From: Paraspadella gotoi | Lineage: Eukaryota; Animalia; Chaetognatha | Assembly: GCA_051294375.1 (NCBI GenBank) | Contig: JBJCIZ010000744.1 | Location: forward strand, 982,262-1,046,261 | Direction of reading: 5' to 3' | DNA length: 64,000 bases | Notes under the pieces: model-generated | Seen by the model: the letters and a program-made list of their open reading frames with translations, nothing else | Database searches by the model: none | Told to the model about the DNA's origin: nothing | Part shown: piece by piece, positions 3,093 to 56,573 of the stretch | How the letters are laid out: every line of letters starts with the position of its first letter | How positions within the stretch are numbered: the stretch's first letter is position 1 | Made by a program: the position numbers and the translations under genes

Positions 3093-3168
3093 GGCAGTTA
3101 AGAGGGACGGGGCGCTTAACCCGCCTGTAACATGGTGTTACAGCCTGATCCGAAGCTCAGGGACTGCT
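3093..3168 (+). ncRNA. Twister ribozyme, type P5 (family 1)
   Basis: P5 GGCAGUU/GACUGCU; GA-CGG pairs with L4 U-CCG-AAGC (T1); U^AA at 3117/3118; GC 3123-3124 (T2); P3 CUGUAACA/UGUUACAG; P4 CUGA/UCAG. P2 is 3 bp with a bulged A; P1 is reduced to GGCGCU. Confidence 0.75.
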
Positions 3169-7953: not shown

Positions 7954-8310
7954 TGTGGCGGTAAATTTACACCTCGTCAGCCTCACCAACATTCTGCGAA
8001 ATTCCAGTTGCTCAGAGCGAGAGCGCACCATCACAACCATGCCATGTATACCTATTACCAAATCCTAACGACTTCCTTCTGAGTTAACGGTCACAGTAAC
8101 AAGTGGCGACTCGGAGGGACCTGAGCCAGATAGTATCTTTATCTCCATATAATCAATTAGGAGAAGATGATCCTAACTATTTTTACAATTAATTCCAGTC
8201 TATCGATCCCCAAATGGTCATTCCAGTCTATCGATCCCCAAATGGCCATTCCAGCCTATCGATCCCCATATGGTCATTCCAGTCTAACAATCCCCAAATG
8301 GCCTTCCCAA
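7954..8310 (+). mobile_element. Truncated LTR element related to the 49.6-kb element (5' LTR, PBS, internal minisatellite)
   Basis: Starts TGTGGCGG and aligns with the first ~120 bp of the 49577 LTR. Ends ...AACA at 8101, then AG and PBS-like TGGCGACTCGG. About four 28-bp units TTCCAGTCTATCGATCCCCAAATGGTCA at 8193-8310. No 3' LTR seen. Confidence 0.6.
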
Positions 8311-18244: not shown

Positions 18245-19216
18245 TCAGTAAGGTCGAGCGCGTTGAGGTCGTCCTCTCCCCCTCCCGTCTCCGCGCCCTC
18301 CCATCCCACGTCCGCGAACGGGTCCGCCCCTCATGTGCGGACGAGACTTTCCGAATCCCGAGGACTGTTGCGAGTAGCCTTCGCCGAATCCGCCCGACTC
18401 GTGCGGATTGAACTTCTGATCTTCGAATCCTTCGGCCTCGTGTCCGTTCTCGTCCGAGTAACCGGCGTAAGCGGAAGCGACGAGGCCGCCTCCACCTCTC
18501 GGAGCGCCTCTACCGCGTCCGCCGCCTCTGAAGGGCGGCATGCCACCTTCTCCGCCTCTACCGCGAGACCTCATGCCGCGCCCACCGTAGGCCGGCATCG
18601 GGGCGTGATAACTGGAATCTCCGTACATGGAGTAAGGATCGTAGGCGCCGTAACCGTACATTGGGGGCGCTGGCGGCTGATAAGACTCGTCGGGGGTCAT
18701 GAACGGCAAGAGGGCGGCCATTGCTTTGGCCATATTTTCCCAGACGTGCTGACAGGGCCCGTAGGACTCCACCCTGACGTGGAGGGGCTCCTTGAGGTGC
18801 AGATGCTCCGGGTCTCCGGACTCGAGGAGCACTTGGACGTTGGTGTTCTTCTTGGCGGAGCCTTGGCCCAGAATGGCGATGCGGGTCTTCGTCTCGAGGG
18901 CAATCTTCTTCAGGTTCTCGCCTTTGTTGCCGAGGATCTTGCCGACGAAGTTGAAGCCGGGATAGCGATCGACGGGGACGTAGAGCTTGTGCATGAGTTT
19001 GATCCGACTCTTTTCGTTGAGCTCGATGTACTCCTGGTTCGGCGGAGGACCTTTCATCACCGACTCTTGGGAGAGTTTGCGGATCTCGTGATCGATGACG
19101 CTGTGGACGTAGGGAGTGACGTCTGGATCGACGGAGGACAGCTCCATCTTCAAAGCCTCCAGCACGGGATTGTGCTGCTCCGTTTTCTCCGCTCCGAAAT
19201 TAGATGCTTCGGCCAT
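18245..19216 (-). CDS. KHDRBS/Sam68-like STAR-family protein, copy B (intronless, 323 aa)
   Basis: YPGFNFVGKILGNKG, HLKEPLHVRVE, Tyr-rich and RGG-rich tail, terminal RARPY. Confidence 0.9.
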   Translation of the reverse strand: MAEASNFGAEKTEQHNPVLEALKMELSSVDPDVTPYVHSVIDHEIRKLSQESVMKGPPPNQEYIELNEKSRIKLMHKLYVPVDRYPGFNFVGKILGNKGENLKKIALETKTRIAILGQGSAKKNTNVQVLLESGDPEHLHLKEPLHVRVESYGPCQHVWENMAKAMAALLPFMTPDESYQPPAPPMYGYGAYDPYSMYGDSSYHAPMPAYGGRGMRSRGRGGEGGMPPFRGGGRGRGAPRGGGGLVASAYAGYSDENGHEAEGFEDQKFNPHESGGFGEGYSQQSSGFGKSRPHMRGGPVRGRGMGGRGDGRGRGRPQRARPY

Positions 19217-21559
19217 CGTTTTCGTTTGTATTTGGAAAATCAGGGTTTATAGTGAATAATAGTTGAGGGAAAATATTTTTTTTTTCGGTTTTCTTATTTC
19301 GTTCTGGAAAAGCAGTCAATACCGATAACAAGTCAAATTTTAATAATATTGTTTGAAGAAAAGAATTGGATTACATTTTATTAGAATTTTACAATATTTT
19401 TACGATATTATATTTATCCCATATCCTAAAGGACCTTCTCTTATTACAGGTATTACTGATTTAGTGTTTACATTATCGGGAATCATATACAAGAAAGTTA
19501 TGACGTTTCTTGGAACAAGACGATACATTTAAGACGTGTATGTCCATTTTTAAGGACTAAAAGCCAAACTTCGACCAGCTTGAGGTTAATATTTTAAGAG
19601 GAGCGCATATTAGAAATCTCCCACTTTTTTAATTTTTTTTTTAATTTTTAAGAATTTTTTTTTTTTTTTTTTGAAAACATGAAAAAAAAAATAAATCAAG
19701 ACAAAACTAGTTTTAGATATTATTTTATTTGTTTTTCTTTAAATTTTTTAAAATTTTAAACCAAATTTTACATTTGTTATAAACCCCCAAAATCCACACT
19801 CAAGTAAGATCTTTTTGGCATTGTTAGAAACATTGTAATCATTAAAAGAATCGCTAATTGACATCGTTTAAAGCTATTTAAGATAGGTTTTGATCAATTC
19901 AGATCAATGTCTTTAAAGTTAATTTTGTTCAAAAATTTATGAAATGTATAAAGATAGTCCTATCTTAAAATTTAACGTTGTCAAATTAGTAATTGCCTCT
20001 ACAAACGTAACACTAATTGAATTGATCGGAGTTACATACAAAAGCTTAGTACATTCTATTTGCAAAGTTTTAGAATTATAAGATTTATTAGTGAAAGTTT
20101 TTAAGAATAATCTTAGGACATAATAAACCTAATATTACAAGATTATTACGTCACCATTTGACGCTATTACATTATGACAATTGTTGTAATATAGTAATCA
20201 TCATAATAATTAAAATTACTAAAGGGTAAACTTATAAAAACTGAAAAGGCAAAAATTTTGCTTACATCAATTTATAATTGGCTTTCAAAGGATAACTTTC
20301 ATATTTTAGTACGTAATAAACTATCTCGTATATTTTATTTGTAAATTAAAGCCAATAATGAGAGAAAAAGGAAAAAGATTGAGGTTACAACACTACATTT
20401 GATCATGATAGGATACGAAAAAAGATATTACTATAGTCACTATCTAGCCTGTACCATATACCAACAATAAAATTTAACTGACGAAGATTATTGAATTTTT
20501 ACATCACAAAGTAATTTCGGAAAACAAAAATAGGGAAGTTAAAGAAAAAATACATACCAAAAACCAGCCTCAAAAGCTTAAAAAACGACGAATTTGTAAG
20601 TAAAATCTAATATTTTTTTTTTTTTAAATCAATCTATAATGACTCATTCACCTCATTTGTAAGTTGAAACTAAAGAGTAAAAAGGTCTAACGTCATTCTA
20701 ATGTATGAATTGGTAATTATTAATTACGCAACAGGTGAAGTGAATGGTGTTTGGTTGCTCCTCGATATGATAATTTTAAAAAACACGTTAGAATATTAAA
20801 ATGACTTTTTTAAGCATCATTTTTCCCCGTTTTAAGGGTATGACGCTCATAATATACACTGCGAAAAAGAAATGTAATAAAATTGACAATAGGGAAAGGT
20901 ATTTTGCTTTTAAATCACAATGGTTTTAAAACCCGTTTAATCTAATCTTTGTAAAATGATAATATATTTTGTATTAATAATGTAAGTTATATCTTACCTC
21001 ACCAAGCAAAATCGTTAAAAATTATTATTTGATTAAAATGACTCGCAAAGTGTCCGTATTCAATATGATTTTGAGTTCTATTACCTTAAAGACAATATTT
21101 TTAAAAGATTATTTATAAAACATTTTTTACGACAGATGGTTTTTTTTCAGACATTACCAGACTGATACTATATTATACATGAGATGCACTATGTAGCAAG
21201 GTTTAAAAATGGTTTATCATACAAACAAAACATTTTAAATTTATCTTATTATACGTACTTGACATGTAAACTGAGGTCAGTAAAGTTTTACACGCATTTT
21301 CATGCATATATCATGTAGGATTGTAAGTGATTTTAGTGGTGAAAATCTATTTATGATCAGAAGACCAATAATTAAAAGTTAATATTAATTTAAGTTTGAA
21401 TTGTTATTAGCACTTAATTACGAATGAAAAACACCTCCATCACAAATTGTTTAAATTTTTGTGTTTTTAACTTTTTTATCGAATTATTATAATTCTTTTT
21501 GGAATTCTTTAATATTTTAAAGACGTGATTAGAAAAAAAAAAATCAGCAATAACAAGGT

Positions 21560-22525
21560 TTAATAGGGTCTTCCACGCGGGCCGGGTCGCGATCGCGGAA
21601 ATCCTCCCCGCATGACTGGGTTTCCTCTGCCCGCGGAAGGCCCCCCGCCTCGGGTCATCATTTTTCCGTAGGGCGCCTGATTGTGGGCATGGCCGAAGCC
21701 ATTGCTGTATCCCGTGGGGCTTTCAATGTCCATGTACTCTGGGACGTCTTCGCAGGTCTCCATTCCGCCGTACATCATTTCTTCCCCAAAGCCGTAACCT
21801 CCGCTTCGCTGCCCGCCTCTCAGCATGTTCCCCCTTTGGGATCCCCTCCCGCGGGGATAAGTTCCCCGGGAATCTCCCCGTCCCCCGTGCATATTCCCCC
21901 TCATGGAACCCCCTCTGCCGACCATGGGGGCGCCGTACATTCCCCCGACGCCGACTTCGTTGTAACCGTTCCATCCGCGCCACTGAGGCGGCGCGGGCGG
22001 AACGTAGGTGTCATCGGGCTTCATATAGGGCGCCAGGGCTTCCATGGCGGCGGCCATGTTGGTCCAGACTTGTTTGTAGGGTCCGTGTGATTCGACTCTG
22101 ACGTGGAGGGGCTCCCGAATGTGCTGGTATTCGGGCGCCCCTGACTCGAGCAGTTCTTGCTCTTTGTTTTTTTCCTTTGTCGATCCTCGGCCCAGAATGG
22201 CCATCCGGGTGTTTGTCTCCGTGCAGAGTTTTTTAAGATTCTCCCCTTTGTTGCCCAAGAGCTTCCCCACAAAATTGTAGCCGGGAAACCGGTCCACGGG
22301 GATGATGACGTTGTGGGCGATTTTGATTCTGTTTTTCTCGTTGGTCAGATCTAAATATTCGGGATTCGGTGGGGGACCTTTCATCATCGACTCCTGGGTT
22401 AGTTTATAGATCTCGTGCTCGACCAACTGGGCTAGGTGAGGCATCGCGTCTGAGTCGATATATTCGTACTGTTGTTTCAGGGCCTCCAAAACTGGGTTTG
22501 GAACGGGAGTGGTCAACTGAGCCAT
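21560..22525 (-). CDS. KHDRBS/Sam68-like STAR-family protein, copy C (intronless, 321 aa)
   Basis: FPGYNFVGKLLGNKG, HIREPLHVRVE, RGG tail, terminal RGRPY; closest to copy A. Confidence 0.9.
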   Translation of the reverse strand: MAQLTTPVPNPVLEALKQQYEYIDSDAMPHLAQLVEHEIYKLTQESMMKGPPPNPEYLDLTNEKNRIKIAHNVIIPVDRFPGYNFVGKLLGNKGENLKKLCTETNTRMAILGRGSTKEKNKEQELLESGAPEYQHIREPLHVRVESHGPYKQVWTNMAAAMEALAPYMKPDDTYVPPAPPQWRGWNGYNEVGVGGMYGAPMVGRGGSMRGNMHGGRGDSRGTYPRGRGSQRGNMLRGGQRSGGYGFGEEMMYGGMETCEDVPEYMDIESPTGYSNGFGHAHNQAPYGKMMTRGGGPSAGRGNPVMRGGFPRSRPGPRGRPY

Positions 22526-25500
22526 TGTTTATTAGTTATAAAAAAATTCTTAAAAATGTTATAAACCTAAAATAAAATAAAAAAAATGATAAGTCTAATT
22601 TGTTTATCACAGTCTCAAACATTCTCAAAATACATATATTTAAATAAGCAGCAAGTTGCCCAAAAAAAAATGTTAACAGGAATTTTAATTGTTTTTCTGA
22701 AACCGGTACAAAATCATTAAAAATTTTCGCAGAAATACATTTTTAAAAATTTGGATCATTTAATTTTAAGTATTTTATTTTTGAACCCAAAATTATACCT
22801 TAGAAAACATTTCAATCTAATCTACAACACAGTAAATTATTAACGCCTTTTTGGATGCTAAAAAAAATTATCAATAGAAAAAAGCGTTTAGCAATGTTAT
22901 AAATTGTCTCTTTTTTTTTTCAATTTTTTATGTCAAATTTTTCTTTTGATTTATTTCGTTTTAAACTTTTCCTTTTTTTTCGTTTCACTTGATTCCCGAA
23001 AACGATCTTCGTTAAAAATCCGCATTTTAACCTGAAATGAGAGAATTAAATTTTGAACTAATCCTGAATAAAAGTCGATGTTATAACCCGATATTTTCAA
23101 AGTTTCTTTCGTTGACTTCATATTAAATTTTTCAATTTTATAATTTAGATTCCGTCTCTAAAAATAGTTTGCGCCACAAAATGATTTAAAATAAATAAGG
23201 ATTTTCATCCTAGAAACAAATTCATTTGATATTTTTAAATTTTATGTTAAAAAACCGGAATAAAAATGAAATATTTTAATGGTCAGGGCTGAAGTTTGAT
23301 TTAAATGGAAAAAACGTCAATTTTAGAAAAAGAAAGAAAGGAAGGAAAGATGGAATGGTAAAGAAGATTGTCAACGACGGAGATTGCAACATGAAGCAAC
23401 GACCAATAGAGAAGAGAAGAGACAGAGAGGCCGTTGGCCGTTGGAAGAGATTCGACGTTGGACAATTGAGAATCTCCAATCGAACATCGACATCGAAGAA
23501 GTGAGACTTCCACTCTCAAACGAAGAAGTGAGACTTCCACTCTCAAAGTTTCAACTCCGATGACGAAAAACGACTTGGAGGCGATTTACGGGTTCAAAAA
23601 TTCCCAATGATCCGAAGCGGACCGACGTTCGACAATTGGTATTGTGTATACTACTCGATTGACCGACTTAAGCGAGAGTGAGATCATAAATCAAGGTGAT
23701 GATGAATCACCAAATATTTTCACGAAAAAAGCGACATATCAAGAAAGATTTTATGGTATGATTAAAATATTTTTAAAACTAAAGAGTATTTGAAGACTTT
23801 TAATAGTAAAAGATTATCTTATTAAAATTTAAAAATATAATTTATTAAAAAGCTAAAAAAATTTAAAAAAACTAAAGTATTCGTTTCCTATAAATGCAGA
23901 TAATTTTTCTTCGAAGAATGATCTCCAATTTTCACGCGAAAGCACATGCAGGTTAGGTTTCGGAAAAGACCAGTAGAATTTATAAACAAGGTACTTTTCA
24001 CAAAAGCTATGCGACGAATTAGAAGTTTAAAGGAATGACAAATCGGTAAGAAAAAACATTTCAAATCGTAAACAAATGACTGAATGAAGAGAATACACAC
24101 GCAAAAACGAGCGCACACATAAAAATGAAAAAAAAGAACAAAATTTCTAATTGGATTAAACAAAACATTTAGAGAATAAACCCGTCTTGTCTTATATGGT
24201 AATGGAATTGAAAACTAAATAAAAAGTTTAATTCTTCGTTTCACACTTCAAACAAACTATTTTTAGAGACAAAAAAAACTGCTTTGAGGGGAAAAACAAA
24301 AGTTTTTAAATCATTTTCTTTTGGCATTTAAAACTAAAACTAAATTAAGCAAAAACACCAAAAAAAAAAGAAAAGAAATAAAAAGTCCCAACATGAGCCT
24401 CTATCATGCTTCGCCCCATCTAATGTCCAACACCAAAAACAATCGCGACCATTCGACGTCGACGCCGACGTCAAAGTAAGGAAAACTTACCTCGTGCTGC
24501 GGACGGAAGCTGCGGCGGCGGCGGCGGCGCTGACGTAAACACAGAAGGGAAGAGACTATTGGGAGCGCTTTGAAATTTGGAAGAAAAATCCCGAGATTTG
24601 TTGACGAGATTTGGAAATAAATCGGTGGATGTTTGTGTCCATAAGTTATGTCGAAGGTGAGGCGAAGATAAAAGGTAAGTTGATGGGTAAATAAGATTGA
24701 AAAGAGATTAGGGGGCCGGGGGAGAGGGAGGGGAAGCATGATTAGAACCAAGTCGAAATAATAATTAATAATTTAAGTTTTTAAGGGAAAAAAAAACTTT
24801 CTTAATTTAATTGCCGTAATAAGTAGATAGTTTTACTGATTTAAAGTTATGAAATATAATCTAACAATCAAAAGAATTAATTTGTTAATTTTTACGCCAT
24901 CTCGACCTAATAATGAGCACCTCTCACGTGTGGAGATGAGATAGAGAGACGCGGATGGAGAAGTTGAAGACTTTGTGGCGAAATCCTGGAGGAAAAAGGA
25001 AAAGGTTCGTCGAGTCGGAGAAATGTATGGAGATTGAAGTGTAGTAAAAATTCTAATTTTAACTTAAATTAAAATTCTCAAAGCGAGGAATGAACAACAT
25101 TGTACTGGATAAATGGATAAACAAATTTTATTACAAATTTTGTAATTTATGCAGTGGGCTATATTTAGATATAGTACTAACCCTATAAATGTTAAAATTT
25201 CAAATTGGTTTTTTGTAAGATTTTTTTTATAGATTTGGATTCGTCTTGAAAGTTGATAAGAAATATAACTCTTTTTGAAAAATTATTTCATTAAGCTGGC
25301 CAAAAATCAGAAAGCCTATATTTTAAGCTGAAAATTAACTTTTTATACATTAAATATAGTTTTTTAAATTTTGAAATTTTAAGATTTTATAAGGATACTA
25401 CTATATAGAAATATGGCCTACTGCAAAAAATTAGAACTTAGAACTTTCATACGTAACTTTCACTACGCCCTTATGGAGATCAATAACAATAATAATTTAT

Positions 25501-25666: not shown

Positions 25667-26845
25667 TCATTTCTTGGCGTGAGGATCGGGAGTCTTCAGG
25701 TTGTACTTTTGTTTCATCTTCTGAATCTCTTCTTCCTTCTTTTCCATGTCGAGCTTCTTGAAGGCCTTCGTCGATTGGTAATAGAGGACGACGAGATATC
25801 GATTGCAGACGTTGAAGCCCGAGAGATGATCGCAGGCCTGTTTGGCGTCGAAGATGTCCTCGTAGACGACGAAGGCCGTGCCTGGATTGGGGCGGGGAAA
25901 AGGGGGTGGGGAAAGAGGGGTGGGGGAAAGTAGCGGGGAAAGGAGCGGGGAAAGGAGGAGCGGGGTAAAGAGGGGCGGGGTTAAGAACGAAAAGCTTAGT
26001 CTTGATTCCGACAAATATAGTAATGTAGTCTAAGAGAATGAGTAATGAAGTATATCATAGACTGTTGAGAGATTTGGCTTTCCCGCGTTGCAGGGTAGGA
26101 TTTGCTCGTCGTGAGGGAGGCTCAACTGCATCTGACAAGACTCCCGAACGTCGTATATAACTGGAGATCTCTCAAAAGCAAACCAAATAATAAAAAGGTC
26201 GAATCGAAGAAATGTAAAGAAAATGTAATAAAAACGTAAATCAGACGAAAATCCAGCGTAAATCGAACAGAAATCCAGCAAAAAATCATACAGAAAATCT
26301 CCTAAGAAAATAACGGCGTCCGTAGAAAAGTCGTAAGAAAATAGTTGATATTCCAGAGAAAATCGTAAGGACTGAATTTGGTCTGTCTGAGCTTTTTCGA
26401 GAGAACTATGAGAGAGAAAGGGCGGGAGAAACCGGTAAAAGAGAGAGAGGGCGAACGAGTCGTACGGTCAACCTTGGTCCGGTCGATCGGTCAGTCCATC
26501 GACCTGGGTTGTCGTCGTCTTTGTCGTCGTCTCCGTCGGTCTCGGGCCTTTCTCTTCATAAGTATACTTTCCATGAGGGAAAGGCAAAGGTACAATAGAA
26601 GAGAGAGAGATCGATAGAGAGCGAGAGATCGCCGTAAACTATTTCATCCCCAAAACCTCCATCATCCCCCCACCTTTGGTTTCCGGCGTTGTCCCGACCC
26701 GGATTTGCCGGATGGCGCCGTATTTGCCGAAAATGTCGTACATTTCCTCCGCCGTGATTTTGTAAGGTAAGTTCCGGACATAAAGAACTCGGTTGACTTC
26801 GGGCGGAAGCCTCACTTGAGACCGAGTCTTCGCTTGCATCGCCAT
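25667..26845 (-). CDS. SF3B6: Splicing factor 3B subunit 6 (p14), 2 exons, 128 aa
   Basis: Exons 26845-26674 and 25881-25667. [40 protein letters not shown]...[36 protein letters not shown] is the SF3b14 RRM. Confidence 0.96.
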
Positions 26846-30297: not shown

Positions 30298-33200
30298 TCA
30301 GCTCGGCGACGGCGGCGCTTCGATTCCGCTGCCGGAGTGACCCGTCGGTGCGGCGTCGGCGCTGCCGGAGTGACCCGAGGTCGGCGAAGGAGGATCGGCG
30401 TCGTCGTGTTCGTCTTCCGTCGTGGAAAGAGGCTCTTTGTGTTCGGATGGAGGAGTTGAGGGGGCGCTGCCTGAAATTTTTAATTCCACTTTTATTCAAG
30501 TTTTATTTTTCATGGTTCATTCGGATTCATTCAGATTTATTCTGATTCATTCATTAATTTTCCTATTCCATTCACTCATTCAGAGATCCATTTCTTTTCG
30601 TCTCACGGGTCCGATTTTCAAATTCCGTAAAAACGCAAACGTAATTCGATTAATTAATATTTTCTCCAGTTAATAGTATATAAACCACAAGGACGACCCT
30701 ATGAGAAGGACATTAACATTTGCAGATTCTAAATTAGGATCCGCGTAAAAAAAAACGAATTGTCAAATAAAAATTCAACCCGCGAAAATAAATGTACATT
30801 TGACAATTTTAAATTATCATAATCTGAAAAATCATTACTTACAAGGATATCATGAAAAAGCCTAAGTAAAACTGATTTAGAAAAGCTAATAACAATTTAA
30901 TAATAATTTTATATTTGCCGTCAGCCCTTTATTTTTTGTAAGGAGTCTCGGATTTATCTTAATTAAATTAAGGTTGGGCAGGATAAATTTTATACTACAA
31001 TACTAGTCCATCATTCTCTTCATATTTGCAAGGGCTTTCCGAAAATAATAATATTGATATTATTTTATTCAAAATATCTTTAAAAAGCTTAATGAAAGTT
31101 GGAAAAAAAATATATGGATATGGATAACTTTTATATTGGTTGTACCAATTTCATATAAAAAGAGAATTTAAAAATGAGAGACGGTTTTCAATTCTATCTT
31201 CCTAACATCAAAGCACACCAAATCTCACAGTTCTCAAGCCACACTGGACAAACCATTCGAGCTCCTCGGATACTCGGGCGGCGGGAGGGGCGGCTTCTCG
31301 TCTCTAAGGATGAGGGGCGTGTGCGGAGGTTCGGGGTGATCCTGGAGTTCGTCCACGAAGATGACGGGGATGCCTATGGGAAAAAGATTTATTTAGATAT
31401 TTAAAGGATTTTTTTTAATACTTTAAAAGTTTATTTTTTATTTATCAATTTCATTCGATACTTTCTCACCTTTGTTGAGAAATGTCCGTTTTTCCCCCAA
31501 AGTTAATTTTCCTCGACGCGATTTCTAAAAAGTATGAAAAATATTTATATATATTAATGCCAGCTACAGGATGTGAATGTTGCTGTGGGTGTTCGCTTAA
31601 CTGATAAGTTATGCTTAATTTAAGTATCAACTATCCATTGATCGTTCTTTATATCGACGTTTAAGTGAACGTTTAAAAAAACATATTGTGGTAGTGAATT
31701 CCATCAATCATCATATCATTCATCATATCATCAATCATCACCTTATAAAGAATACAAGCGATGCAAGCGGCAAGCACGAGGATGACGGCGATGACGACAG
31801 CTGGCAGCACCGTCGTGATCCAGACGTCAGCGTCGTCGGCGCCGCCGGAGGGCGCAGCAGCAGCCGCAGGATCGTCGTCGTCGCCTCGGGAGGAGGAGGA
31901 GGAAGAGTCGTCGACGGCGACGACTTCATGACTCATTTTGTCACAAGGACCGTGAGTTGTGAGAGAGACCTGATGCGTGATAAATTTCGATCAAGTTTAA
32001 TGATTAATGACGTGAATTAAACTTCACGAAAATGGAGAAAGCGATTTATCTTTTGGGGTGGATTTTAAATTTCGAGTAGAAAAGAAAATGAAACAACAGC
32101 CGGGTTGCCGGTCAGGCCCATTGGGATGGGGCATCTCACTGTTGGCTTTGGGGGACTTCCGACCCTCAGTGACGCCTCGTGTCACTGGCGCGGTTACCCG
32201 CCACAAAACAGTCTCAAGTTCATTTGAGATTTAATATAGAATTAATTAGAATTATTGTTAAACAACTATTCAAGAGATATACCAATTGTTACGTATTAAT
32301 TATTCAACCGTTCATAATTTATCGCAGCTTCGGATCGAGCTGTCGCAACATGGCACAACACAGGTGGGTTAAGCCCCCCACTCAACTACCAGGCTAGAAC
32401 TCCGGACCTTCGGGCAATTAAAACTGAACGGTCGGTGGATTAAAATCCTCCACGCTTGACGATTAACTCATCTCGCCGTTGAAGAGACAGTGATAATTGT
32501 TATGTGTTAGTGACAGAACCGTTCAATATAAGCAGTCCCTGAGCTTCGGATCAGGCTGTAACGCCATGTTACAGGCGGGTTAAGCGCCCCGTCCCTCTTA
32601 ACTGCAAGGCAACCACCGGGCTAGAACCCCGGACCTTTGGGTTGGGAGGCGAATGACTTGCCTCCGGCACCAATGGCCGCTGATGAACGGTTAGTGGATT
32701 TTAGTCCATACCGTCGAACCCCCGTTCACGAACCTTGCTGAGAATGAAATCGTTTTCCGCCATGGGTCTAATGACGGAATCCTTGATTCTGTCCCGCTGA
32801 TCGAACACGGTCTCTTTCATTCTCTTTAAATCCGCGACGGGACAAGGGGAGAAGGGCAGGGAAGAGTTGGTCCAACCCACGGCCGTCGATCCTCCTTTGA
32901 CTCGGGTGATGAGAATGTCGTCCATCGAAGAGTTGAACACACTAAGGGTAGGGGGGAGTGGATAATTAAATTGATCGATAATAAAAATATTATTTCTTTC
33001 TTATTATGTGTTAAATAGTTTATAATTTTAAGTTGCTAAATCACTATGCTGTCCCAGTAGGTTAGTTGCTTAGTTTCTCAAACTAGGCCTCTAGATCTAA
33101 GCGTTCCTTTGATGTTTTGATTTTTTGAGACAGAAACTGCTTTGAAGTTCAAGAGCGTATATACGTATCGAGTTGTTATTTAAAACTATTATATAATTTG

Positions 33201-45466: not shown

Positions 45467-47280
45467 NNNNNNNNNNAGAGAGGGAGAAACCCTGTGAAAA
45501 ATTCATTTTGCTTTATTAACAAGAATTCTTCTTAGCTTTGAAGAGTTCTTGAGTTAAATAAACAGGGTTTCAAATTTTTTTTAAGAAAAAAAAAAATTGA
45601 AAAACAGAACGAAGAAGAGAGAGCGCAAGTTACTTGGTAACATTACTGGTATTTTGCTTAAAGTCAATTTGGATCACAGGAAAAAAAATCAAAATAAACA
45701 AACAAAAAAATAGAAAAGGTGTAAGCGGTTTTAGTTCTCGCGGAGGCGGCCGAAGAGAAAAAATCAAACTTTGTAATTTGAACTCAAAAACTACAAAAAA
45801 AAAAGCAGAATCGAATTTTAAACTTTTTAAGTTGAATTTTTTGTTATTTTAATCGTTTTTTATACGTAAAATGAAATAAACTTTGTATGCGAAATTCTTG
45901 AACGATCAAATATAAATATTTGTCTTCATCGTTTCTTTAAAATATCTCAGCGTTAATAAACGAATCAACATTCGCTGTTGATAATTTCGAAACGAATATA
46001 AAAATCTGTTTTTGTGCATTCGGACTTTAAAGAAAGCGTTTTACAGCCCGGCTCCAGATAATAGATTGAATTCTTATTAATATTTATGAAATGCGTTGAG
46101 AATGTGTTTGTTTTGAAGATTGCCAAAATGATAAGAGAGGGAAAAACTTTTTAGAAGATTAGTACACGTCACGAATGCTATTAAAACTATTAAAACGAAA
46201 TTAAAACTTTTTAGAATGGTATCCAAATTTGAAGATTTCGTAGACACAATTTTTTTTTCTACTCTCGTAAATTTCATATCTTAAATATTAATTTATACTT
46301 TTTCGACATTTTTTTAATATCAAATAAATACGATTGATAATCCAACGCGTTAATAATCGATCGCGGTAGAGTCTTTTTCTATGAGACATTTTTCTTCTTG
46401 TTGTTTACTTTTATTCCGATTTGTTTACATCTTTTGTTTACGTTGATTTTCTCGACGGAAAAAGAGATTTTTTTGTGGACGAAATGAAGAAACCAAAGTC
46501 GAACGAAGGAGGAGGAGGAGGAAGAGGAGGAGGAGGAGGGTGAGATTGGGGGATGAAAGATGAGAGAGAGAGAGAGAGAGGAGAGAGAGAGGAGAGAGAA
46601 GATATGCGATCAGTGAAAAAGAAGAAAATGCTTCTTCTGCGACGACGACGAGACTGATTGATGACGACGACGACTTTTAAAGGCTGGAGAGTGCTAAAGA
46701 AAAAAGCCAGAGAGAGAGAGAGAGAGAGGGACCAAAAAAGAAAGGCTGACAAGGGAAGAAAAGAAAGGCTCAGGAGAAAGGATTTAAAAGGAAAGAATAT
46801 TTAGGGATATTGAGAAAATATGGAGACAAGGGATGCTGAGTGTAGATTTTGCAGTTTATACTGTAGAGGGTCTACATGGGTAAAGAAATGTGCTGTAGAC
46901 AAGGGGTCAAGTCAATGCGGTAGTCAGGGCTGGACAAAAATGGGTCAGGACTAAGGCTATAGAAAATGGCTTAAGTTAAAGGCTATAAAAAGGATGCATT
47001 ACCGATTTTAAGGGCCGAAAACCGTCGGATAATTTTAAGGTTTTGCTAAAAAGTAGAAAGTAGAAAAGGTCTAAAAATGTGTTTTTAGAGCTAAAAACTG
47101 AAAGCTGAAAACTTATTGCTGATGGAAAGAGCTATGGAAAAGGGCTAGAGGCACATTTCGAAAGTTAGGGTATGTTAAAAAGGTGTTGTATTACCATAAA
47201 AACGTGCTGACTGATTAGGCTGCATTTATTATTTAGTATTTTGCGGCTGTAGTAAAAAGCTACAAATAGGGCGAAGGGTC

Positions 47281-47373
<93 letters not shown>

Positions 47374-47510
47374 GGGAAGGCTCCTGGCTCCGAATTCCTG
47401 AGAGAGATGATCTCCAAGGATTTTCCGCGCCAAAGATTCGCCGATTTCGACTCCGAACGAAAGCGAGCGAGCGAGCGAGGAAGCGAGAGAGAGAGAGAGT
47501 GAGAGAGAGA

Positions 47511-47549
<39 letters not shown>

Positions 47550-47630
47550 TCTCCAGTCTTCATTTACAACGAAAATGTTTGGAAAGAAACGTTCGGATTT
47601 TTAACGAGAGAGAGAGAGAGAGAGACGAGA

Positions 47631-47677
<47 letters not shown>

Positions 47678-48784
47678 AGGGGCGGGAGGCGGAGGCGGTG
47701 GGAGTTCTCGTTATAGGGGACTCTCTCTAAATCGAATTCCGATCTAACTTTTATTTTCGAAGAGAAATAAAAATGAGCATAATAACATTTAATGATATTA
47801 ATGTTACCATAACAGTAATAAAAAACCGTTCCGACAATTTTTTTCATCTAATTTTATCAAAATATAATAAAACTCCCCTTAAAAGTCTTTCCCTCGTTTT
47901 AAAAAATTGAATATAAATATTTTAAAAGATCTGATATCCATATTTTATTGAATTAACTCAAGATTTGAAACTTTGAAAATTATTTTTATTTTTGTGGAGG
48001 CAGAGAAGAGAACTGCGGCGGCAGCGGCGGCGACAGCGGCGGCGTGACTCGAGCTAGTAGATAAGATATAGAGATTCTGCAAATATCTAAAACTCCCGAG
48101 GTCGAGATAATAAAATAAATTATTTAGCGCCTGGAACCAAGTTTTAAAATAAATACATATTTAAAAAGACCCAATTATGAATTGGGATATTCCAACCAAA
48201 AAATGAAGACTTTGGCTCCAGAGATTTAAGAAAAAATAATTAATAAAAATAACAATAAACGATATACTGAAAAAAAATGTTTTAGGCTCCATTAAGAGAA
48301 AACAATTTAAGAAAACCTTAAAAAATATTGTTTTGGCTTCTGAGGCTAAAAAAAACCATCTGAAATACTTAGTCCCAATTATTTATTTTTTAAGACTTGA
48401 AAGAATAAAAAGTTAGAAACAGTTACTGCAAAAATTTAATCAGAATAAATAGAAAAAATAAACTTTTTTAAAAGCAGATTATGTCTTGTTTGAATGTATG
48501 AATTATGTTTTATGAATTATCTTATGTTTTTTTAGTTTTTTAAACAGTTAATGTTTATGATTATGATTATGATTCATTTATTTACATATTTCATTTTTTT
48601 ATTATCCTTATTTAATAGATGTATATATTATTCACAGACAGGCCAAGGCAGAGAGAGAGTTCTTAGATTATGAGTCTCCCGAATTTTAAAACAGCGACGG
48701 TGACTACAAACATTTTCATAAACATTTCACCAAAAGAAAATAATCCATATGTTTCTAGGTCGAATGTTGTGTTTACACTGGGAC

Positions 48785-48834
<50 letters not shown>

Positions 48835-48894
48835 ATGGTATTCGAGATCTTTTTTCTCTAAATTCTTTCCGATAGTTCCCCCCCTGCTCATTCT

Positions 48895-48953
<59 letters not shown>

Positions 48954-49416
48954 GCTCGAGTGAAAAAAGTGAAGGGCAGAATGGAAGAAATTCTGTGAAG
49001 GACAAATTCAGGAGGCAAGGAGGAAAGTTCTGTCGAACATCAAATCCCAAATCGATATAATCTGGTTAATAGTTATATTAATAGATAAATAAATATTTTA
49101 AATAAATAGATACTTAAAAAATTTAACAAATAAAATATCTTAAATTAATAAATATTTTAATAATTTAATAGACGAATAAATATTTTGAATTATTGAATAT
49201 TTTAATAATTTACTTGAGAGATAAATATTTTAAATAAATATTTGTTTATTATAATAATAAATAAACAAATGAATATCTTAAATCAATAAATATTTTAATA
49301 TTTAAATGATTATTTATCAATACTCAGCAGATACAATGGACTCTTATTGTGCAGAGAAAATCCTAAGAAATTAAATCCATTCTTTTCCTGTGGAGAAAAT
49401 CCTTTCTCGGATTTCT

Positions 49417-49448
<32 letters not shown>

Positions 49449-49696
49449 GGAGAGAGAGATAGAGAGAGATAGAGAAAGAGAGAAAGGGAGAGAGAGAGAG
49501 AGAGAAGAATGACCTACTTTCATAACTTTTCAATTCAGAATTATTTAATCAATATTTTTTTCACTTTTTAACATATTGTGGCGGTATATTCACACCGCCT
49601 ACGTCCACCATCGTTCAGCCAAATCCATTGGCTCAGAGGGGAACACACCATCCCAGGCGTAGTGTTCCATCCACAGTCCTAATGACTTCCCTCTGC

Positions 49697-49777
49697 GTTG
49701 GCAAAGCGAGACCGTCCTAGGGTAACCGCGCCAGTGACTGGATGCGTCACTGAGGGTCGGAAGCCCCCCAAGCCAAC
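49697..49777 (+). ncRNA. Twister ribozyme, type P5, 5' LTR copy
   Basis: P5 GUUGGC/GCCAAC; GA-CCG pairs with L4 U-CGG-AAGC; P1 UCCUAGGG; U^AA at 49723/49724; P2 CCGC/GCGA (one C-A mismatch); GC (T2); P3 CAGUGAC/GUCACUG; P4 GGG/CCC. Confidence 0.8.
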
Positions 49778-50191
49778 AGTGGAATGCCCCATCCCAATGG
49801 GCATCACAGCACCCGGCTGTTGCCATAAGTGGTGAGCCCTACTATCGAACACGCAACCTTCTGCAGGGTACGCTACAACAAACGCCTATGCCCTGCCGAC
49901 TTTGGGTACGCTACGACAAACGCCTATGCCCCTGGGGTACGCTACGACAAACGCCTATGCCCCACAAACTCGCGCTCTCTCTCTCCTCTCCCCACTATGG
50001 TGACAGCTCTTGTCAGACACCTCTCAGGCTTGAGGAACCTAGTGATGTCTTGGTCCGGGGATCCTGTGGCGGTATATTCACACCGCCTCACGTCCACCAT
50101 CGTTCAGCGCCAAATCCATTGGCTCAGAGGGGGAACACACCATCCCAGGCGTAGTGTTCCAATCCACACAGTCCTAATGACTTCCCTCTGC

Positions 50192-50272
50192 GTTGGCAAA
50201 GCGAGACCGTCCTAGGGTAACCGCGCCAGTGACTGGATGCGTCACTGAGGGTCGGAAGCCCCCAAAGCCAAC
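50192..50272 (+). ncRNA. Twister ribozyme, type P5, 3' LTR copy
   Basis: Same core as the 5' LTR copy; predicted cleavage at 50218/50219. Confidence 0.8.
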
Positions 50273-50785
50273 AGTGAGATGCCCCATCCCAATGGGCCAT
50301 CACAGGCAACCCGGCTGTTGCCATAATATATGATTTATTGATAATCTCATATTCACGATTCTATTTAAATTTTCTCAACGAGAATTTTCATAAAATCCTC
50401 TAGCTATTTTGATTTGATTAAGTTTAAATTTAGAATCCCAAATTTGTAAACGTTGGAGTGATGACTGTTGTACCGGTCAATCGCCATTCGTGACAGGTTA
50501 GCTCATTAAACGAAGTCATCAGCCCACGACCAATGTGTAATTGGTTCGATCCTAACCCTTATGGGTTTCCACGAAGTTATGGACAATGTCCAATGTGTCC
50601 AACCACCAAATCTGGTGTCTGTTTAGAAATTAACTGTTAATTTAATTAATATCTGACAGATTACGTGACTGAAAACCTTTGAAGGTTTGTATCTAGCTAT
50701 GGTAAGGCTCTAATGTATGCAGTATGGTGGACTAAAATCCACCAATCGTTCATCAGCGGCNNNNNNNNNNNNNNNNNNNNNNNNN

Positions 50786-53700
50786 CCTGATAGATAATAC
50801 GTTAAAATTGACTAATAATAACTTTGTATGCGAAATTCATCGTTGAACGACAAATAATTCATTAATATAGTATACAATATTTAGTCTCCATCGTTTCTTA
50901 ATAATATCTGCCTCAGCGCTTAGATACAAACGAATCAAAACAGTTCGCTGTTGATTAATTCTTCGAGAACGAATTATTAATAAATCTGTTTTTGTCCATT
51001 CGGACTTTAAAAAGAATATGCGTATTACAGCCCGGTCCTCCAGATAATAGATTTGAATTGCTTCATTTAAATTTCATGAAATGCGTGAGAATGGAATGTG
51101 TTTGTTTTTTGAAGGGATTTGCCCAAAAATAGAAGATATTAAGAGAAGGTGAAAAACCTTTTTAGCAAGATTAGTCACACCGTCACGAAAATGCTATTTT
51201 GAAAACTATTGTAATAACGATCAATTAAAACCTTTTCAGTAGTGAATGGTATCCAAATTTTGAACAGATTTCCGTGCCTATTAGACACAATTTTTTTCTA
51301 CTCTCCATTCCGATACTGTCAGAATCATAAATGTAACAATCTTAAATTTCTGTTAGACTTTATACTTTTTCAGACATTGTTAATCACTTGTTGTCTATTT
51401 ATACATAGTCAAATTAAATCATCACGATTGATAACTCCACACTGCATGTGCAATAATCGATCGCGAGGGTTAAGAGTTTTTCTATGAGGCCCATTTTTAC
51501 TGTCTTGTTGTTCTTATTTTTTACTTTATCTGCCAATTTTGTTCACATCTTTTTTTATCCCGTGATTTTTCGATGCGGGAAAAAATGACAGATGTTTTTT
51601 GAGACTCGAAAATATGAACCAAAAGTCGAAAGGTACGATAAGGGAGGGGCGAAGGAATGCTCGAGCGAGCGGATGGAGGAGAATTGTGGGGATGCAAAGA
51701 GAGAAGATCGACTGATGAGATGAGAAGAGCTATGGACCGGAGAGAGAGAGAGACGAGATGAGGATAAGATCGTATGATGATGAATGAGAGAGATAAGAGG
51801 AGAGAGATGAGAGAGAGATATTGCGATCAAGTGAATAAAGAAGCAAAAATGCTATCCTTCTCGCCACGACGAGACGACTTTTATAAAGGCTGGAGAGTGC
51901 TAAAGAAAAAAAGCCAAGACGAGACGGAGTAGAGAGAGGATGGGACAAAAACAGACTCAAGCCCGCTGACAAGGAAGAAAAGGAAAGGCTCAGCGTAGCA
52001 TGAGGATTTAGAAAGGACAAGGATAATTTAGGGCATCTATGCGCGAACATAATCATGAAGACCACAGGGATGCTGAGTGTAGATTTTGAAGATTTATACT
52101 GCCTAGAGGTGTCTACATGTGGTGTATAAGAAAATTGCTGGCATGCATAGACTAAGGGGTCAAGTCCAATTGCCATTCCGGTAGTCAGGGCGTGACAATA
52201 AATGGGGTCAGCGCACTAAGTGCTACTAGAATAATGGCTACAAATAAAAAATATTAATGTTATTAAGCGTATAAAAAAGAGTGCCGAATTACCGCATTTT
52301 AAGGGTCGAACAACCGTCGGAATAATGTTTAGGTTTTGCTAATGAAAACTATGTAGAAAGTAAGAAAAGGGTCTAATAAAATGTGTTTTTAAGAGGCTAA
52401 ACCTGAAAGCTGAAAACTGTATTGGCTGAAATAGAGAAAGAGCTATGGACATATTGTCGAAGCTAGTAAGGCACGATTGATCGAGAAGGTTAGGGTCATC
52501 TAGTGAAGTGTATGTATCAGAAAAGAGAGATCGCTTGTGCTATAGATTACGGATAATGATATACTCTGGCTGACTGGATTAGGACTTGCCATTTATAATT
52601 AATTTAGTATTTGCGGCGTGTCTAGTCAGAAAAAGACTACAAATAGGGGCGAACGGTCGAAAGAAGAGAAGAGAGAGGACGAGCTGACGGGGTAGAGAGG
52701 AGCCGTGAGAGTACGAGAGAGAGAGAGAGGGAGCAGGAGAGAGAGCTGTAAGGCTCCTGGGCTCGATTCCTTGATGAGAGATGAATCTCAAGATTTTCCG
52801 CCAAAAGATTCGCGATCTTACGACTGACGCCCGAACGAAAGCGAGCGAGCGAGGCGAGCTAGGCGAGAGTAGGAGAGAGGCGACGATGAGAGAGACGTGA
52901 GAAGAGGATGAGAGAGAGTGCAGAGAAGAGTCTCCCGCAGTCATTCATTTACAACGAAAAGTTGGAAGAAACGTTCGCGCGATTTTAACGAGGAGAGAGA
53001 GAGAGCGAGAGACGAGAGAAGACGAGAGAGAGATGAGACGAAGAGACCGTAGGAGAGAGAGAGAGAGAGGAGGGGCCGGAGGCCGAGGGCGGGCCTGAGT
53101 TCTCGCTAATAGGGGACTCTCTCACTAAATCGAATTCCGATCTAACTTCTGTATTTTCGAAGAGAAATAAAAATGCAGCACTCAATAACCAAGTTTAGCA
53201 TTGATATTAAATCAGTTACTCAGCAACAGTAATAAAAACAACCGTTCGTACAATTTTTTCATCTCAATTTTATCCAAGATACTAATAAAAACTCCCCTTG
53301 CCTTAAAATGTCTTCTCCCCTCGTTTCTAAAAAATTTGAATATAAATTATTTTAAAGATCTCGATAATCCCATATTTTATTGAATTAAGCTCAACTGATT
53401 TGAAACTTTGAAGAAATTATTTTTTATTTTTGTGGAGGACAGAGAAGAGTAATGCGGCGGCAGCGGCGGCGACAGCGCGCGCTGTGACTCGAGCTAGTAG
53501 ATATAGATATATAGAGTTCTGGCAAATATCTACAAACTCCCGTAGGTCGACGATATTAAAATAATTATTTCAGCGCCTGGAACCAAGTTTTATCAAACAA
53601 TATAGCATATTAAAGATAACGGACCCAATTATGAATTTGGATATTCAACCAAAATGAAGAGATGCAAGACTATTAAGCCATCAGAGATTTCAGATTAAAA

Positions 53701-56397
53701 AATAATAATAAAAAAAATATAAACGAAATACCTGAAAAACATCTTTTGGCTTCCAATTGGATCAAGAAAACAATAAGTAAAACTTATAAAAATCATTTGT
53801 TTGGTGCTACTGCAGGCTAAAAGACAAACCATCTGAAATACTTAGCTCCCAATTATTTATTTTTTAAGATTGAAAGTGAATAAAAAGTTAGAAAACAGTT
53901 ACTGCCAAAAATTTAATCAAGTATAAATATAGATAAAAATTAAACTTATTTTAAAGCTAGATTATGTTTGTTGAATGTATGATATTATGTTTCTATGAAT
54001 TATCTTATGTTTTTTTAGTTTTTTAAACTATGTTAATGTTTATGATTATGATTAATGATTCATTTATTTAGCATATTTGCATTTTTTTATTATCTTTATT
54101 TAATAGATGTCATATATTATGTCACAGAACAGGCCAAGGCAGAGAGAGGAGTTCTTAGATTATGAGTCTCGAATTTTAAACAGCGACGGTGACTACAAAC
54201 ATTTTCATAACACATTCACCAAAAGAAAATAATCCATAGTTTCTTAGGTCGAATCGTTGTGTTTACACTGGACGAGAGACGAGAGAGTAGAGCAGAATGA
54301 GAAGAGAAAGAGAGAGAGAGAGAGAGAATGGTATTCGAGATCTTTTTTCTCTAAATTTCTTTACCGATAGTTCCCCCCTGCCTCATTCTTATTCTCTCTC
54401 TCTCTCTCTCCATCTTCTCCTCTCTCTCTCTCTCTCTCTTCCTCGCCCGGCCCCCCCCTCTTAGCTCGACGTGAAAAAAAGTGAAGGCAGAATGGAAGAA
54501 AATTCTGTGAAGGCAAATTCAGGAGTGACAAGCGATGAACAGTACTGTCACGAACCAGTCAATCCGCACACATCATACCTAATCTCAGCGTAGTACGTGT
54601 ATGATAGCATAAATAAAATATTGTTAAATAAATAGATACTTAAAAAATTTAACCAAATAAAATATCTTAAATTAAATAAATATTTAATATTTAATAGAGC
54701 GAATAAATATTTTGAATATTGGAATATTTTTAATAATTTACTGTAGTTAAAATTTTAAATAAATATTTGTTTATTATAATAATAAATCAACAAATGAATA
54801 TTTAAATCGATAAGATATTTTAATATTTAAATGAGTTATTTATCAGATACTCAGCACGATACATTACTGGGACTCTTTTGTGCAGAGAAATCCTAGAGAA
54901 ATTAAATCGCATTCTTTTCCTGTTGCGAGCAAAATCCTTTCTTCGGATTTCTAAGGAGAGAGAGAGACGAGAGAGAGGAGAGAGGGGAGAGAGGATAAGA
55001 GAGAGATTAGAGATAAAGAGAGAAGGGAGAGAAGAGAGAGAGAAGAATGGCCTACTTTAGACCTTTTCATATTCAGAATTATTTAATCAAACTATTTTTT
55101 TCACTTTCTTTAACGATATTGTGGCGTATATTCACACCGACCTCACGTCCTAGCCATCGTTCGCAAATCCATTGGCTGCAGAGCGGGAACACACCATCCA
55201 GGCGTAGTGTTCCACACTCCACAGTCCGTAATGACTACTCTGGACTTAACAGTTGGCAAAGTGCGCGAGACCGTCCCTAGGGTAACCGCGCCAGTGACTG
55301 CATGTGCTCACTGAGGTGTCGTGAACCCAAGCTCAGCCAACAGTAGGATGCCGCCATCACATGGGCATCACAGTCAACCCGGCTGTTGCCATAAGTGGTG
55401 AGCGCTACTATCGAACACGGGCAACCTTACTGCAGGTACGTACACAAACGCCTATGCGCCTGCCGGACTTTGGGTACGGCTACGACAAACGCCGTATGCC
55501 CTGGGGTAGCTACGACAAACGCCTATGGCCCCCCACAACGTCGCGCGCTCTCTCTCTCTCTCTCCCACTATGGTTGACAGCTCTTGTTCAGACACCTCTC
55601 AGGCTTGAAGGAACCTGAGTGATTGTCTTGTTCCGCGGGGATGCCTGTATGGCGGTATATTCACACCGCCTCACGGCTCCACCATCGTTCAGCCTAACAA
55701 ACTCCATTGGCTCGAGACCGGGGGAACACACCATCCCTAGGCGTAGTGTTCACATTCCACTAGTCCTAATGACTTCCCTCTGCGTTTGGCAAAGGCGAGA
55801 CCGTCCCTAGGGTAAGCCGCGCCAGTGACTGGATCGGGTCACTGAGGGTCGGAAGCCCGCCAAAGCAACAGTTGGAGATCCCCTCCCAAGTGGGCATCAC
55901 GAGGCAACCCTGGCTGTTTGCCATAATATACTGATTTTTGATAATCCTCATATTCACGATTCGTATTTGAAATTTTCTCAACGAGAATTTTCATAATATC
56001 CCTCTAGCTATTTGATTTGATTAAGGTTTAAATTTAGAATCCCAAATTTGTAAACGTTGGAGTGATGGACTCGTTGTACGGTCCAAGTCGCCCATTGCTG
56101 GACAGGTTTAGCACTCATTTTAAACATAAGTCATCAGCCCACGAGCAATGTTGTAACTTGGTTCGCATCCTAACCCTTATTGGGTTTATCACAGAAGTTA
56201 TGGACAATGTCCAATGTGTTCCAACCACCAAATCTGTGGTGTCTGTTATCTCAGGCAAATTAACTCAGTAATTAATTCAACTGATATTCGACAGCATTAC
56301 GTGACTGAAAACCTTTGAAGGTTTGTATCTAGCTATGCGTAAGGCTCTAATGTATTGCCAGTATGGTGGACTAAAATCCACAATACGTTTCATCAGC
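50786..56397 (+). other. Indel-rich duplicate of ~45862-50760 after a 25-N gap (probable raw long-read gap-fill artefact)
   Basis: Colinear with 45.9-50.8 kb throughout, including a second LTR element at ~55120-55925. Differences are dominated by scattered 1-2 nt insertions; exactly 25 N at 50761-50785. Confidence 0.85.
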
Positions 56398-56573
56398 CAC
56401 ACATTGGTGCCGCAGGAGTCAAGTTACTCGCCTCCCAACCTAGGTCCGGGGTTCTCGCCCCGGTATTTCGCGAGCAGTTAAGACAGGGACGGGGCGCTTA
56501 ACCCGCCTGTAACACTGTGTTACAACCTGATCCGAAGCTGCTTATATCACATAACAATAATTACTATCTCTTC
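56362..56573 (+). mobile_element. Family 1 tRNA-twister element, noisy or deleted copy
   Basis: TATGGTGGACTAAAATCCAC...CTCGCCTCCCAACC...GGGACGGGGCGCTTAACCCGCCTGTAACA...TGATCCGAAGCT; part of P4'/P5' is missing. Confidence 0.75.

Follow-up and report, generated by a model that had tools for sequence, protein, structure and literature searches.

The window, by which we mean the whole 64,000-nucleotide stretch analysed here, is animal DNA, since eight of the ten open reading frames scanned carry dystroglycan, KH-domain (KHDRBS), SMN Tudor or MPP6 domains; the homologues obtained for two of its proteins are environmental proteins without a name. Direct reading of its sequence reveals a 749-bp non-coding LTR element at 49577-50325, which together with its flanks is composed of the following features:

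49573..49576, + strand: 5' target-site duplication ATAT (sequence; the loose-end consensus upstream of the LTR start ends in ATAT in sequencing runs X2 and X5)
49577..49827, + strand: 5' LTR of 251 bp with TGT...ATA termini (direct reading, BLAST and alignment)
49830..49863, + strand: extended primer-binding site (PBS) for tRNA-Trp, aligned to the ARAGORN-called tRNA-Trp(CCA) of locus L011
49866..49963, + strand: internal tandem repeat, about three units of 28-31 nt
50057..50061, + strand: weak candidate polypurine tract GGGGA, 3 nt upstream of the 3' LTR
50065..50325, + strand: 3' LTR of 261 bp (alignment; diversely flanked loose ends at 50064/50065 and at 50327)
50326..50329, + strand: 3' target-site duplication ATAT (sequence)

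An AG spacer separates the 5' LTR from the TGG at 49830, and the two LTRs align with 249 matches, one substitution and 12 gap letters (94.7% by BLAST). The longest purine runs of the internal part are GAGGAA at 50032-50037 and GGGGA at 50057-50061, which confirms the weakness of the polypurine tract that an earlier, sequence-only reading of this DNA had pointed out. The GC content of the element is 57%, a sequence scan finds neither AATAAA nor ATTAAA in it, and TTTT is absent as well. Its two stop-to-stop frames (128 and 138 aa) give no Pfam match at E 0.1, indicating that it has no coding capacity. ARAGORN finds no tRNA in the element, and its second LTR contains a box A-like TGGCTCAGAGG and an imperfect box B-like GTGTTCCAATCC, with an alignment to tRNA-Trp at noise level. 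A length below 1 kb, two LTRs, a PBS, a target-site duplication (TSD) and the lack of any protein are the features of a terminal-repeat mini-retrotransposon, and the element is a non-coding LTR mini-retrotransposon (TRIM) of an animal, non-autonomous and of Ty3/gypsy type. The sequence-only reading had already given these coordinates, the paired LTRs, the ATAT duplication, the TGG 2 nt past the 5' LTR and the absence of coding capacity, all of which were borne out; its assignment to a non-autonomous Ty3/gypsy-type element of an animal is supported by the PBS, the termini, the TSD and the genes in the window.

Related sequences are present elsewhere in the window:

55120..55926, + strand: the same insertion a second time, flanked as the first copy is and located within a tandem duplicate of 4.7 kb
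32094..32199, - strand: LTR fragment of this family within an intron of dystroglycan, comprising the twister 3' half and the LTR tail
7954..8085, + strand: diverged 5' part of an LTR, about 71% identical, followed by its own 28-nt repeats

The copy at 55120-55926 differs from the first by 77 extra letters, 19 missing letters and 14 substitutions, and sequencing reads carry the right flank only in its first-copy version (0 differences), never in that of the duplicate. Because it has the same flanks and an error pattern dominated by insertions, we treat this copy as most likely an uncorrected long read within the assembly rather than an independent insertion, and with the reads carrying the first version only we rejected it as independent evidence. 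The partial LTR at 32094-32199 retains the stem of twister helix P3 with an altered loop, while the related LTR start at 7954-8085 has no intact twister.

Public sequencing data reveal that the element is mobile and occupies many insertion sites in the genome. Part of the element is found in 12 of the 14 runs listed, and nine of these 12 come from three studies of one organism (shares 0.34-0.57). Contigs, and contigs only, of four runs were mapped onto the window; runs X11 and X12, with a share of 0.08, do not count as evidence here. In DNA run X2, the LTR start is the precise position of loose ends with diverse AT-rich flanks in 68+25 contigs, and loose ends at the same place occur in 64+28 contigs of DNA run X5. 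In both runs the flanks at these loose ends agree to 0.43-0.46 and their consensus ends in ATAT, indicating an insertion preference of the family for ATAT. Depth in X2 is 1e5-1e6 on the element versus 241 on the right flank, and the element/flank ratio of 670-2200 in the internal bins corresponds to the order of a thousand copies, a rough figure because depth is not copy number. The dozens of flanks and the very high depth in the two DNA runs also show that the two LTRs are not an assembly stutter, an artefact against which the sequence-only reading had warned.

The PBS connects the element with a particular group of retrotransposons. Its first 10 nt are complementary to the CCA and acceptor end of tRNA-Trp and its last 18 nt are the exact complement of the T-arm/variable loop, with a degenerate 6-nt bridge in place of 9 nt of the tRNA in the middle, so that the tRNA 3' end sought by the sequence-only reading is found in tRNA-Trp. 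Among 14 loci, ARAGORN calls tRNA-Trp in four and tRNA-Arg in two and makes no call in eight; the 18 nt also match a wheat tRF-Trp-CCA in the available part of PMC8722339. The signature of the CsRn1 clade, as given in the accessible text of PMC2582038, consists of a tRNA-Trp PBS (5'-TGGTGAG/CCCCGT/A-3'), termini TGT...AAA or TGT...ATA and a 4-bp TSD. Our element fits this clade in all three respects, with PBS letters 1-10 matching the published motif and the 11th differing. Because PBS, termini and 4-bp TSD match, a Ty3/gypsy element of the CsRn1 clade is the likely mobilising helper. The ATAT preference, however, departs from the clade, for which the same text reports no target-sequence preference. 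No autonomous partner is encoded among the 24 open reading frames of the window that were scanned (14 + 10).

Each LTR contains a complete type-P5 twister core, as the sequence-only reading had proposed, with all elements at their expected places and matched by our descriptor:

49697..49777, + strand: type-P5 twister motif of the 5' LTR, predicted cut U49723^A49724 (descriptor match 49706-49767)
50192..50272, + strand: type-P5 twister motif of the 3' LTR, predicted cut U50218^A50219 (descriptor match)
49715..49722, + strand: palindromic P1 region TCCTAGGG, a 2-bp hairpin in the monomer or a self-complementary duplex between two copies

The two 81-nt domains lie 495 nt apart and are identical in 80 of 81 letters, the sole difference being a linker base. 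The order of parts in each LTR is P2'-GA-T1'-P1-U^AA-P2-GC-P3-A-P4-U-T1-AA-GC-P4, and in each this type-P5 permutation is closed by a P5 helix of 6 bp (GTTGGC at 49697-49702 with GCCAAC at 49772-49777, in RNA GUUGGC/GCCAAC; pairing probability 0.98). In the 5' copy, P2' is GCGA at 49706-49709 and P2 is CCGC; the U^AA at 49723-49725 and the GA of the opposite strand at 49710-49711 are both present. Both pseudoknots form by Watson-Crick pairs, T1 between CCG at 49712-49714 and CGG at 49758-49760, and T2 between GC at 49730-49731 and GC at 49763-49764. P3 has 7 bp (pairing probability 0.99) and is followed by A, and the L4 pattern U-NNN-AA-GC is present as GGG U CGG AA GC CCC with a P4 of 3 bp, whose fourth position is A-C, with T at 49768 in 13% of the X2 depth. 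P2 consists of 3 bp and a C-A mismatch adjoining L1.

The consensus was taken from PMC8501958 Table 1, PMC5113685 and the Rfam P1 consensus line, and the descriptor was built from PMC8501958 Table 1 with one P2 mismatch allowed. On both strands of the 64 kb it matches only the two LTR sites, and it has no match in the window when no mismatch is allowed. It gave 0 matches on both strands of simulated Markov DNA, in 5 Mb of LTR composition as in 5 Mb of window composition. As a control, it found all seven of the phage loci scored as twister-P1 by Rfam among 20 scanned, and on 45 pre-filtered viral loci it gave a single P5-order match (L022), which lacks the P3 and P5 helices. The covariance-model check proposed by the sequence-only reading went against it: Rfam finds no twister in the window at the gathering threshold, relaxed searching returns only twister-P1 on the 3' half of the motif (13-16 bits, E 3.5-4.2), and Twister-P5 is unreported for the motif even at E 10; hammerhead families are likewise absent from the window at gathering score or E 10. 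The lack of a gathering-level match is a weak objection, because the seven genuine phage twisters used as control also fall short of the 67.2-bit cut-off (44-48 bits, E about 1e-8), and a model in P1 order is unable to score a motif in P5 order as a whole.

In the mutational scan of the twister Osa-1-4, T1 and T2 are intolerant and P1, P2 and P4 tolerant of change (PMC5113685), and according to the accessible text of PMC8501958 and PMC5113685, slow cleavage proceeds even without P1. The P2 mismatch (C-A), a caveat of the sequence-only reading, is indeed present, but its weight is probably small, since it is equivalent to Osa-1-4 G44A, which has a relative activity of 0.97 in a 2-h endpoint assay (PMC5113685 supplement; the column was located by counting). 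Double mutants containing G44A frequently lose activity (PMC5113685 supplement), and the present motif combines three weakenings, a P1 of 2 bp, a P2 of 3 bp with C-A and a P4 of 3 bp. Among the 40 of 63 variants listed, those at 5% or above in the DNA runs fall on none of the 55 core positions versus 15 in the other 196 positions of the first LTR (Fisher p 0.02), a count from a young family that excludes 49763 (0.3% in X2, low depth). The P3 loop holds two of these 15 variants, at 18% and 75% in X2. Run X10, from a second organism, contributes one contig of 276 nt at depth 6 that covers the motif with eight differences, none of them in the core. The twister motif is non-random and all its conserved nucleotides are intact in both LTRs, and from this sequence cleavage is predicted. 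Wider searches found no convincing relative. The exact core pattern occurs at 0 loci of the JGI metagenomes; a looser P5 pattern gave four metagenomic loci, all four due to chance and without helices or repeats; viral contigs gave 0 loci and annotated phages no match; and a looser twister pattern gave the 45 viral loci, mostly type-P1 or chance, with no convincing P5 example.

Folding predictions give the P1 region an unusual role. The RNA segment UCCUAGGG is self-complementary, with +2.7 kcal/mol as a hairpin, in which P1 has 2 bp and a 4-nt loop, and -11.0 kcal/mol as a self-duplex. In the monomer, the twister-compatible fold lies 4.4 kcal/mol above the minimum, compared with 0-1.1 for all ten phage twisters under the same treatment, and the pairing probabilities of P2 and P4 are 0.03 and 0.005. 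The competing helix occupies the GGG of the P1 region, and masking the palindrome raises P2 from 0.03 to 0.5 and P4 only to 0.12. RNAcofold does not form the P1 duplex between two domains, a program that cannot model loop-loop pairing. Axolotl retrozymes show dimeric cleavage and are circularised by RtcB in vitro (PMC7229834, available part), and by analogy with their hammerheads the palindromic P1 suggests cleavage as a dimer, with P1 serving as a switch. Neither the competing fold nor the palindromic P1 was described in the sequence-only reading, nor were the tRNA-Trp/CsRn1 link and the copies at 55120, 32094 and 7954.

Cleavage at both predicted sites would release one defined RNA:

49724..50218, + strand: predicted 495-nt monomer between the cut sites, with PBS and polypurine tract inside and no terminal repeat (sequence arithmetic)

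As a circle, this RNA has a predicted minimum free energy of -163.2 with 56% of its bases paired and a z-score of -1.9, three of 60 shuffles being as stable, for an input copy that may hold indel errors; this pairing is below the more than 70% quoted for retrozymes. An endless reading frame in the circle was considered and rejected, as each of the six frames contains 3-7 stops. None of the element-holding runs listed is recorded as RNA. We judge run X9 to be RNA, nevertheless, because its contigs skip a 792-nt GT-AG intron, with exons at depth 660-900, and miss two single-copy non-exonic stretches that DNA runs cover; a paralogue with 10 differences may account for part of the intron joint, where X2 shows another joint. 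X9 holds the element, at a summed depth of the order of 1e4, and not its flank, with contigs giving presence only. Exons have an X9/X2 depth ratio of 0.95-1.39, compared with 0.013-0.037 in the internal region of the element and 0.004-0.013 in a different intronic repeat. RNA per genomic copy is low, and therefore much of the element signal in X9 may be read-through.

On the basis of these features, we propose that this high-copy TRIM, with a type-P5 twister in each LTR and a likely CsRn1-clade helper, may work as a retrozyme, a reading that we regard as evenly poised. In a transcript through both LTRs, U49723^A49724 and U50218^A50219 would be the cut sites, and the most likely trigger is the pairing of one palindromic P1 segment with the other, which would free the core from the competing helix. 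The 495-nt product, with a 5'-OH and a 2',3'-cyclic phosphate, would be ligated by an RtcB-like tRNA ligase. The resulting circle would be the template for a CsRn1-type reverse transcriptase primed by tRNA-Trp, because strand transfer requires a terminal repeat (R) that the cut RNA would lack, and two LTRs would be rebuilt by copying on beyond one unit. The integrase of the helper would then insert the copy with a 4-bp duplication, preferably at ATAT. A lone circle would contain one palindrome and hence be slow to recut itself. For plant retrozymes, the available text of PMC4918200 likewise describes loss of R on cleavage, the use of circles and a hammerhead in a blocked fold. We further suggest, more tentatively and with doubt slightly outweighing belief, that the element is the first LTR retrozyme known from animals and also the first to be based on twisters, which would cut only when paired and so spare the ligated 495-nt circle as template for reverse transcription.

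Other explanations have to be weighed against this cycle. It is rather unlikely, in our view, that the sole effect of twister cleavage is the trimming or turnover of linear RNA, for example in 3' end formation replacing a poly(A) signal, in release from read-through transcripts or in self-limitation, while the element replicates as an ordinary TRIM through uncut or singly cut RNA that keeps R. Such trimming would agree with the lack of AATAAA/ATTAAA within the element, with a competing fold that would leave much RNA uncut and with the only modest structure of the predicted circle, and 5'-end trimming by twisters is described for the linear RNA of Perere-3/RTE (PMC8501958 and PMC7761336, accessible parts). 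Each of the two LTRs, however, contains the whole motif, and cleavage within the 5' one would deprive the RNA of R and thereby block normal strand transfer, an argument made in the available text of PMC4918200; the palindromic P1, moreover, suits a reaction of two copies that releases a monomer. We also consider it unlikely that the element is an ordinary CsRn1-dependent TRIM that captured an inactive twister as a passenger, conservation reflecting the recent amplification of one master copy. The greater stability of the competing fold by 4.4 kcal/mol, three weakened helices with no Rfam match at threshold, near-identical LTRs, the related LTR start at 7954 without the motif and the low RNA per copy are all in keeping with a passenger. 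Against it, the catalytic and pseudoknot positions are all intact, variation among the 40 of 63 variants listed avoids the core and yet, at two positions of the P3 loop, amounts to 18% and 75% in X2, and the partial copy at 32094-32199 retains the P3 stem with a different loop. Finally, that the likeness to a twister is due to chance, or that both repeats stem from an assembly stutter, is very improbable and largely refuted: the 4.7-kb duplicate full of errors is indeed part of the assembly, the Rfam scores do not rise above noise, and the descriptor required one mismatch and gave the helix-free P5-order match L022 among 45 viral loci, but TSD, PBS and CsRn1-type termini frame the repeats, runs from at least three independent studies hold the element with many flanks, and 10 Mb of simulated DNA gave 0 descriptor matches while a 7-bp P3 and a 6-bp P5 stand exactly where twisters allow them.

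The sequence-only reading knew of no described twister-LTR retrozyme, and our literature search, outside which lay most subscription journals, Repbase and Dfam, likewise turned up neither an LTR with a twister in it nor an LTR retrozyme from an animal; the supplements of PMC8501958 and PMC10886601 could contain one unremarked. In the accessible text of PMC8501958, an LTR reverse transcriptase domain lies downstream of 1.6% of 2060 twister variants. LTR retrozymes are placed in plants, and twisters at the 5' ends of RTE/Perere elements or in infectious circles, in the available parts of PMC7761336, PMC5680766, PMC6765202, PMC13725137, PMC10085705, PMC11721086, PMC9695139 and bioRxiv 10.1101/2022.07.19.500677. 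Reviews, in their accessible portions, divide retrozymes into those of plants, with LTRs and type III hammerheads, and those of animals, with type I hammerheads and no LTRs, and the twisters known from retroelements all lie at the 5' end of non-LTR elements. In its anatomy, the present element breaks both of these rules. If it also cleaves and circularises, the retrozyme cycle would be a convergent solution that is independent of ribozyme class and kingdom, the LTR-retrozyme life cycle having arisen independently with another class of ribozyme, and, should the two twisters cut only as a pair, this would be the first natural dimeric twister. Genome-encoded twister circles would then be a candidate source of the many twister-bearing viroid-like circles in metatranscriptomes. 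A named helper, the CsRn1 clade, would make the proposed circle-templated reverse transcription testable in an animal, and a family missed by Rfam implies that more may hide in other animal TRIM libraries.

Comparison with known systems, as described in the available portions of the sources cited, places the element between several groups. Like the twister T-variants of Perere-3/RTE in Schistosoma (PMC8501958), it has a twister in an animal retroelement and a P1 that is weak or variable, but those elements are autonomous and non-LTR, with a single type-P1 ribozyme at the 5' end and linear RNA. It shares with the non-LTR retrozymes of metazoans (PMC7229834) an animal host, the lack of coding sequence and a monomer delimited by ribozymes, here a predicted one; dimeric cleavage and RtcB ligation, both only proposed for our element, are demonstrated in that group, which differs in low GC, larger TSDs, a tandem arrangement of type I hammerheads and the lack of an LTR, a PBS and a PPT. 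The animal TRIMs Helenus and Ajax (Kojima 2024, PMC10886601) resemble it in a size below 1 kb, two LTRs, a PBS, a 4-bp TSD, mobilisation by gypsy elements and hundreds to thousands of copies, but the source describes no ribozyme in them, and Helenus has a sense tRNA-like promoter in its LTR, whereas here it is the PBS region that shows clear tRNA similarity, in antisense orientation. PwRn1 and AgCR of the CsRn1 clade (PMC2582038) have the same PBS start (TGGTGAG/CCCC), TGT...ATA termini and 4-bp TSD, but members of this clade are autonomous and about 4-6 kb long, with no target preference and no ribozyme reported there. With the LTR retrozymes of plants (Cervera, Urbina and de la Pena 2016, PMC4918200), the element has in common that it is non-coding, with a self-cleaving motif (here predicted) in each LTR, a PBS, a 4-bp TSD, Ty3/gypsy dependence, a GC content above 55% and a ribozyme predicted in a blocked fold. 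It differs from them in its animal host, in a twister instead of a type III hammerhead, in a PBS for tRNA-Trp rather than tRNA-Met and in size, with LTRs of 251-261 versus 300-400 bp and a predicted monomer of 495 versus about 700 nt. Judged from its sequence, the element falls outside the retrozyme family when this is defined by a hammerhead and a tRNA-Met PBS, but it probably works in a retrozyme-like manner.

Copies of the LTR element in the run contigs diverge in sequence past the tRNA-Trp complement (window position 49858), and the one contig of a second organism (organism B) is among the copies that differ there. Judged by eye, the alternative sequence past 49858 resembles an antisense tRNA D-arm, and it may define a second internal subtype of the element that carries a larger part of the primer tRNA. 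A further variant, which lacks 41 nt of the internal repeat (49862-49904), reaches a depth of 3273 in X9, a run that behaves as RNA, whereas its depth is 0 in both DNA runs compared; this may reflect either a population difference or a single dominant expressed copy. There is also a sign that extended tRNA-Trp PBSs exist outside this element. In a contig within a bacterial MAG, probably eukaryotic contamination, TGG and about 36 nt antisense to tRNA-Trp follow a short stretch ending in A (L009:100-145), as would be expected if a different LTR element had an extended PBS of this type.

Other repeats in the window:

7954-8330: diverged relative of the 5' part of the LTR, twister not intact
2985-3225, 32472-32716, 50722-50760, 56361-56539: dispersed ~250-bp repeat family, separate from the element

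On the 3' side of the diverged LTR part lie TGGCGAC, which is either PBS-like or a decayed P3 stem, and then four 28-nt repeats. No second LTR was found for this relative, which could be a sister family without a ribozyme or an old copy in decay. The dispersed family is higher in GC than neighbouring DNA, and one of its copies lies a short distance 3' of the element. The 4.7-kb tandem duplicate around the element (46559-50757 and 51779-56397) has 81.5% identity between its arms, which differ mostly by insertions, and is likely an uncorrected long read retained in the assembly.

Elsewhere in the window, three adjacent, mostly intronless KH-domain (KHDRBS-like) paralogues occupy 16381-22528, with Pfam KH matches in the two that were scanned. 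An intron of an RRM gene (26030-26640) is occupied by a multi-copy repeat, with depth up to 39,000 against about 240 in DNA run X2.

Among viral contigs (L025-L062), a type-P1 twister recurs in about 20 phage contigs; the end of its P2 nearer to T2 is formed by an A-G pair, and its scores fall under the Rfam cut-off.
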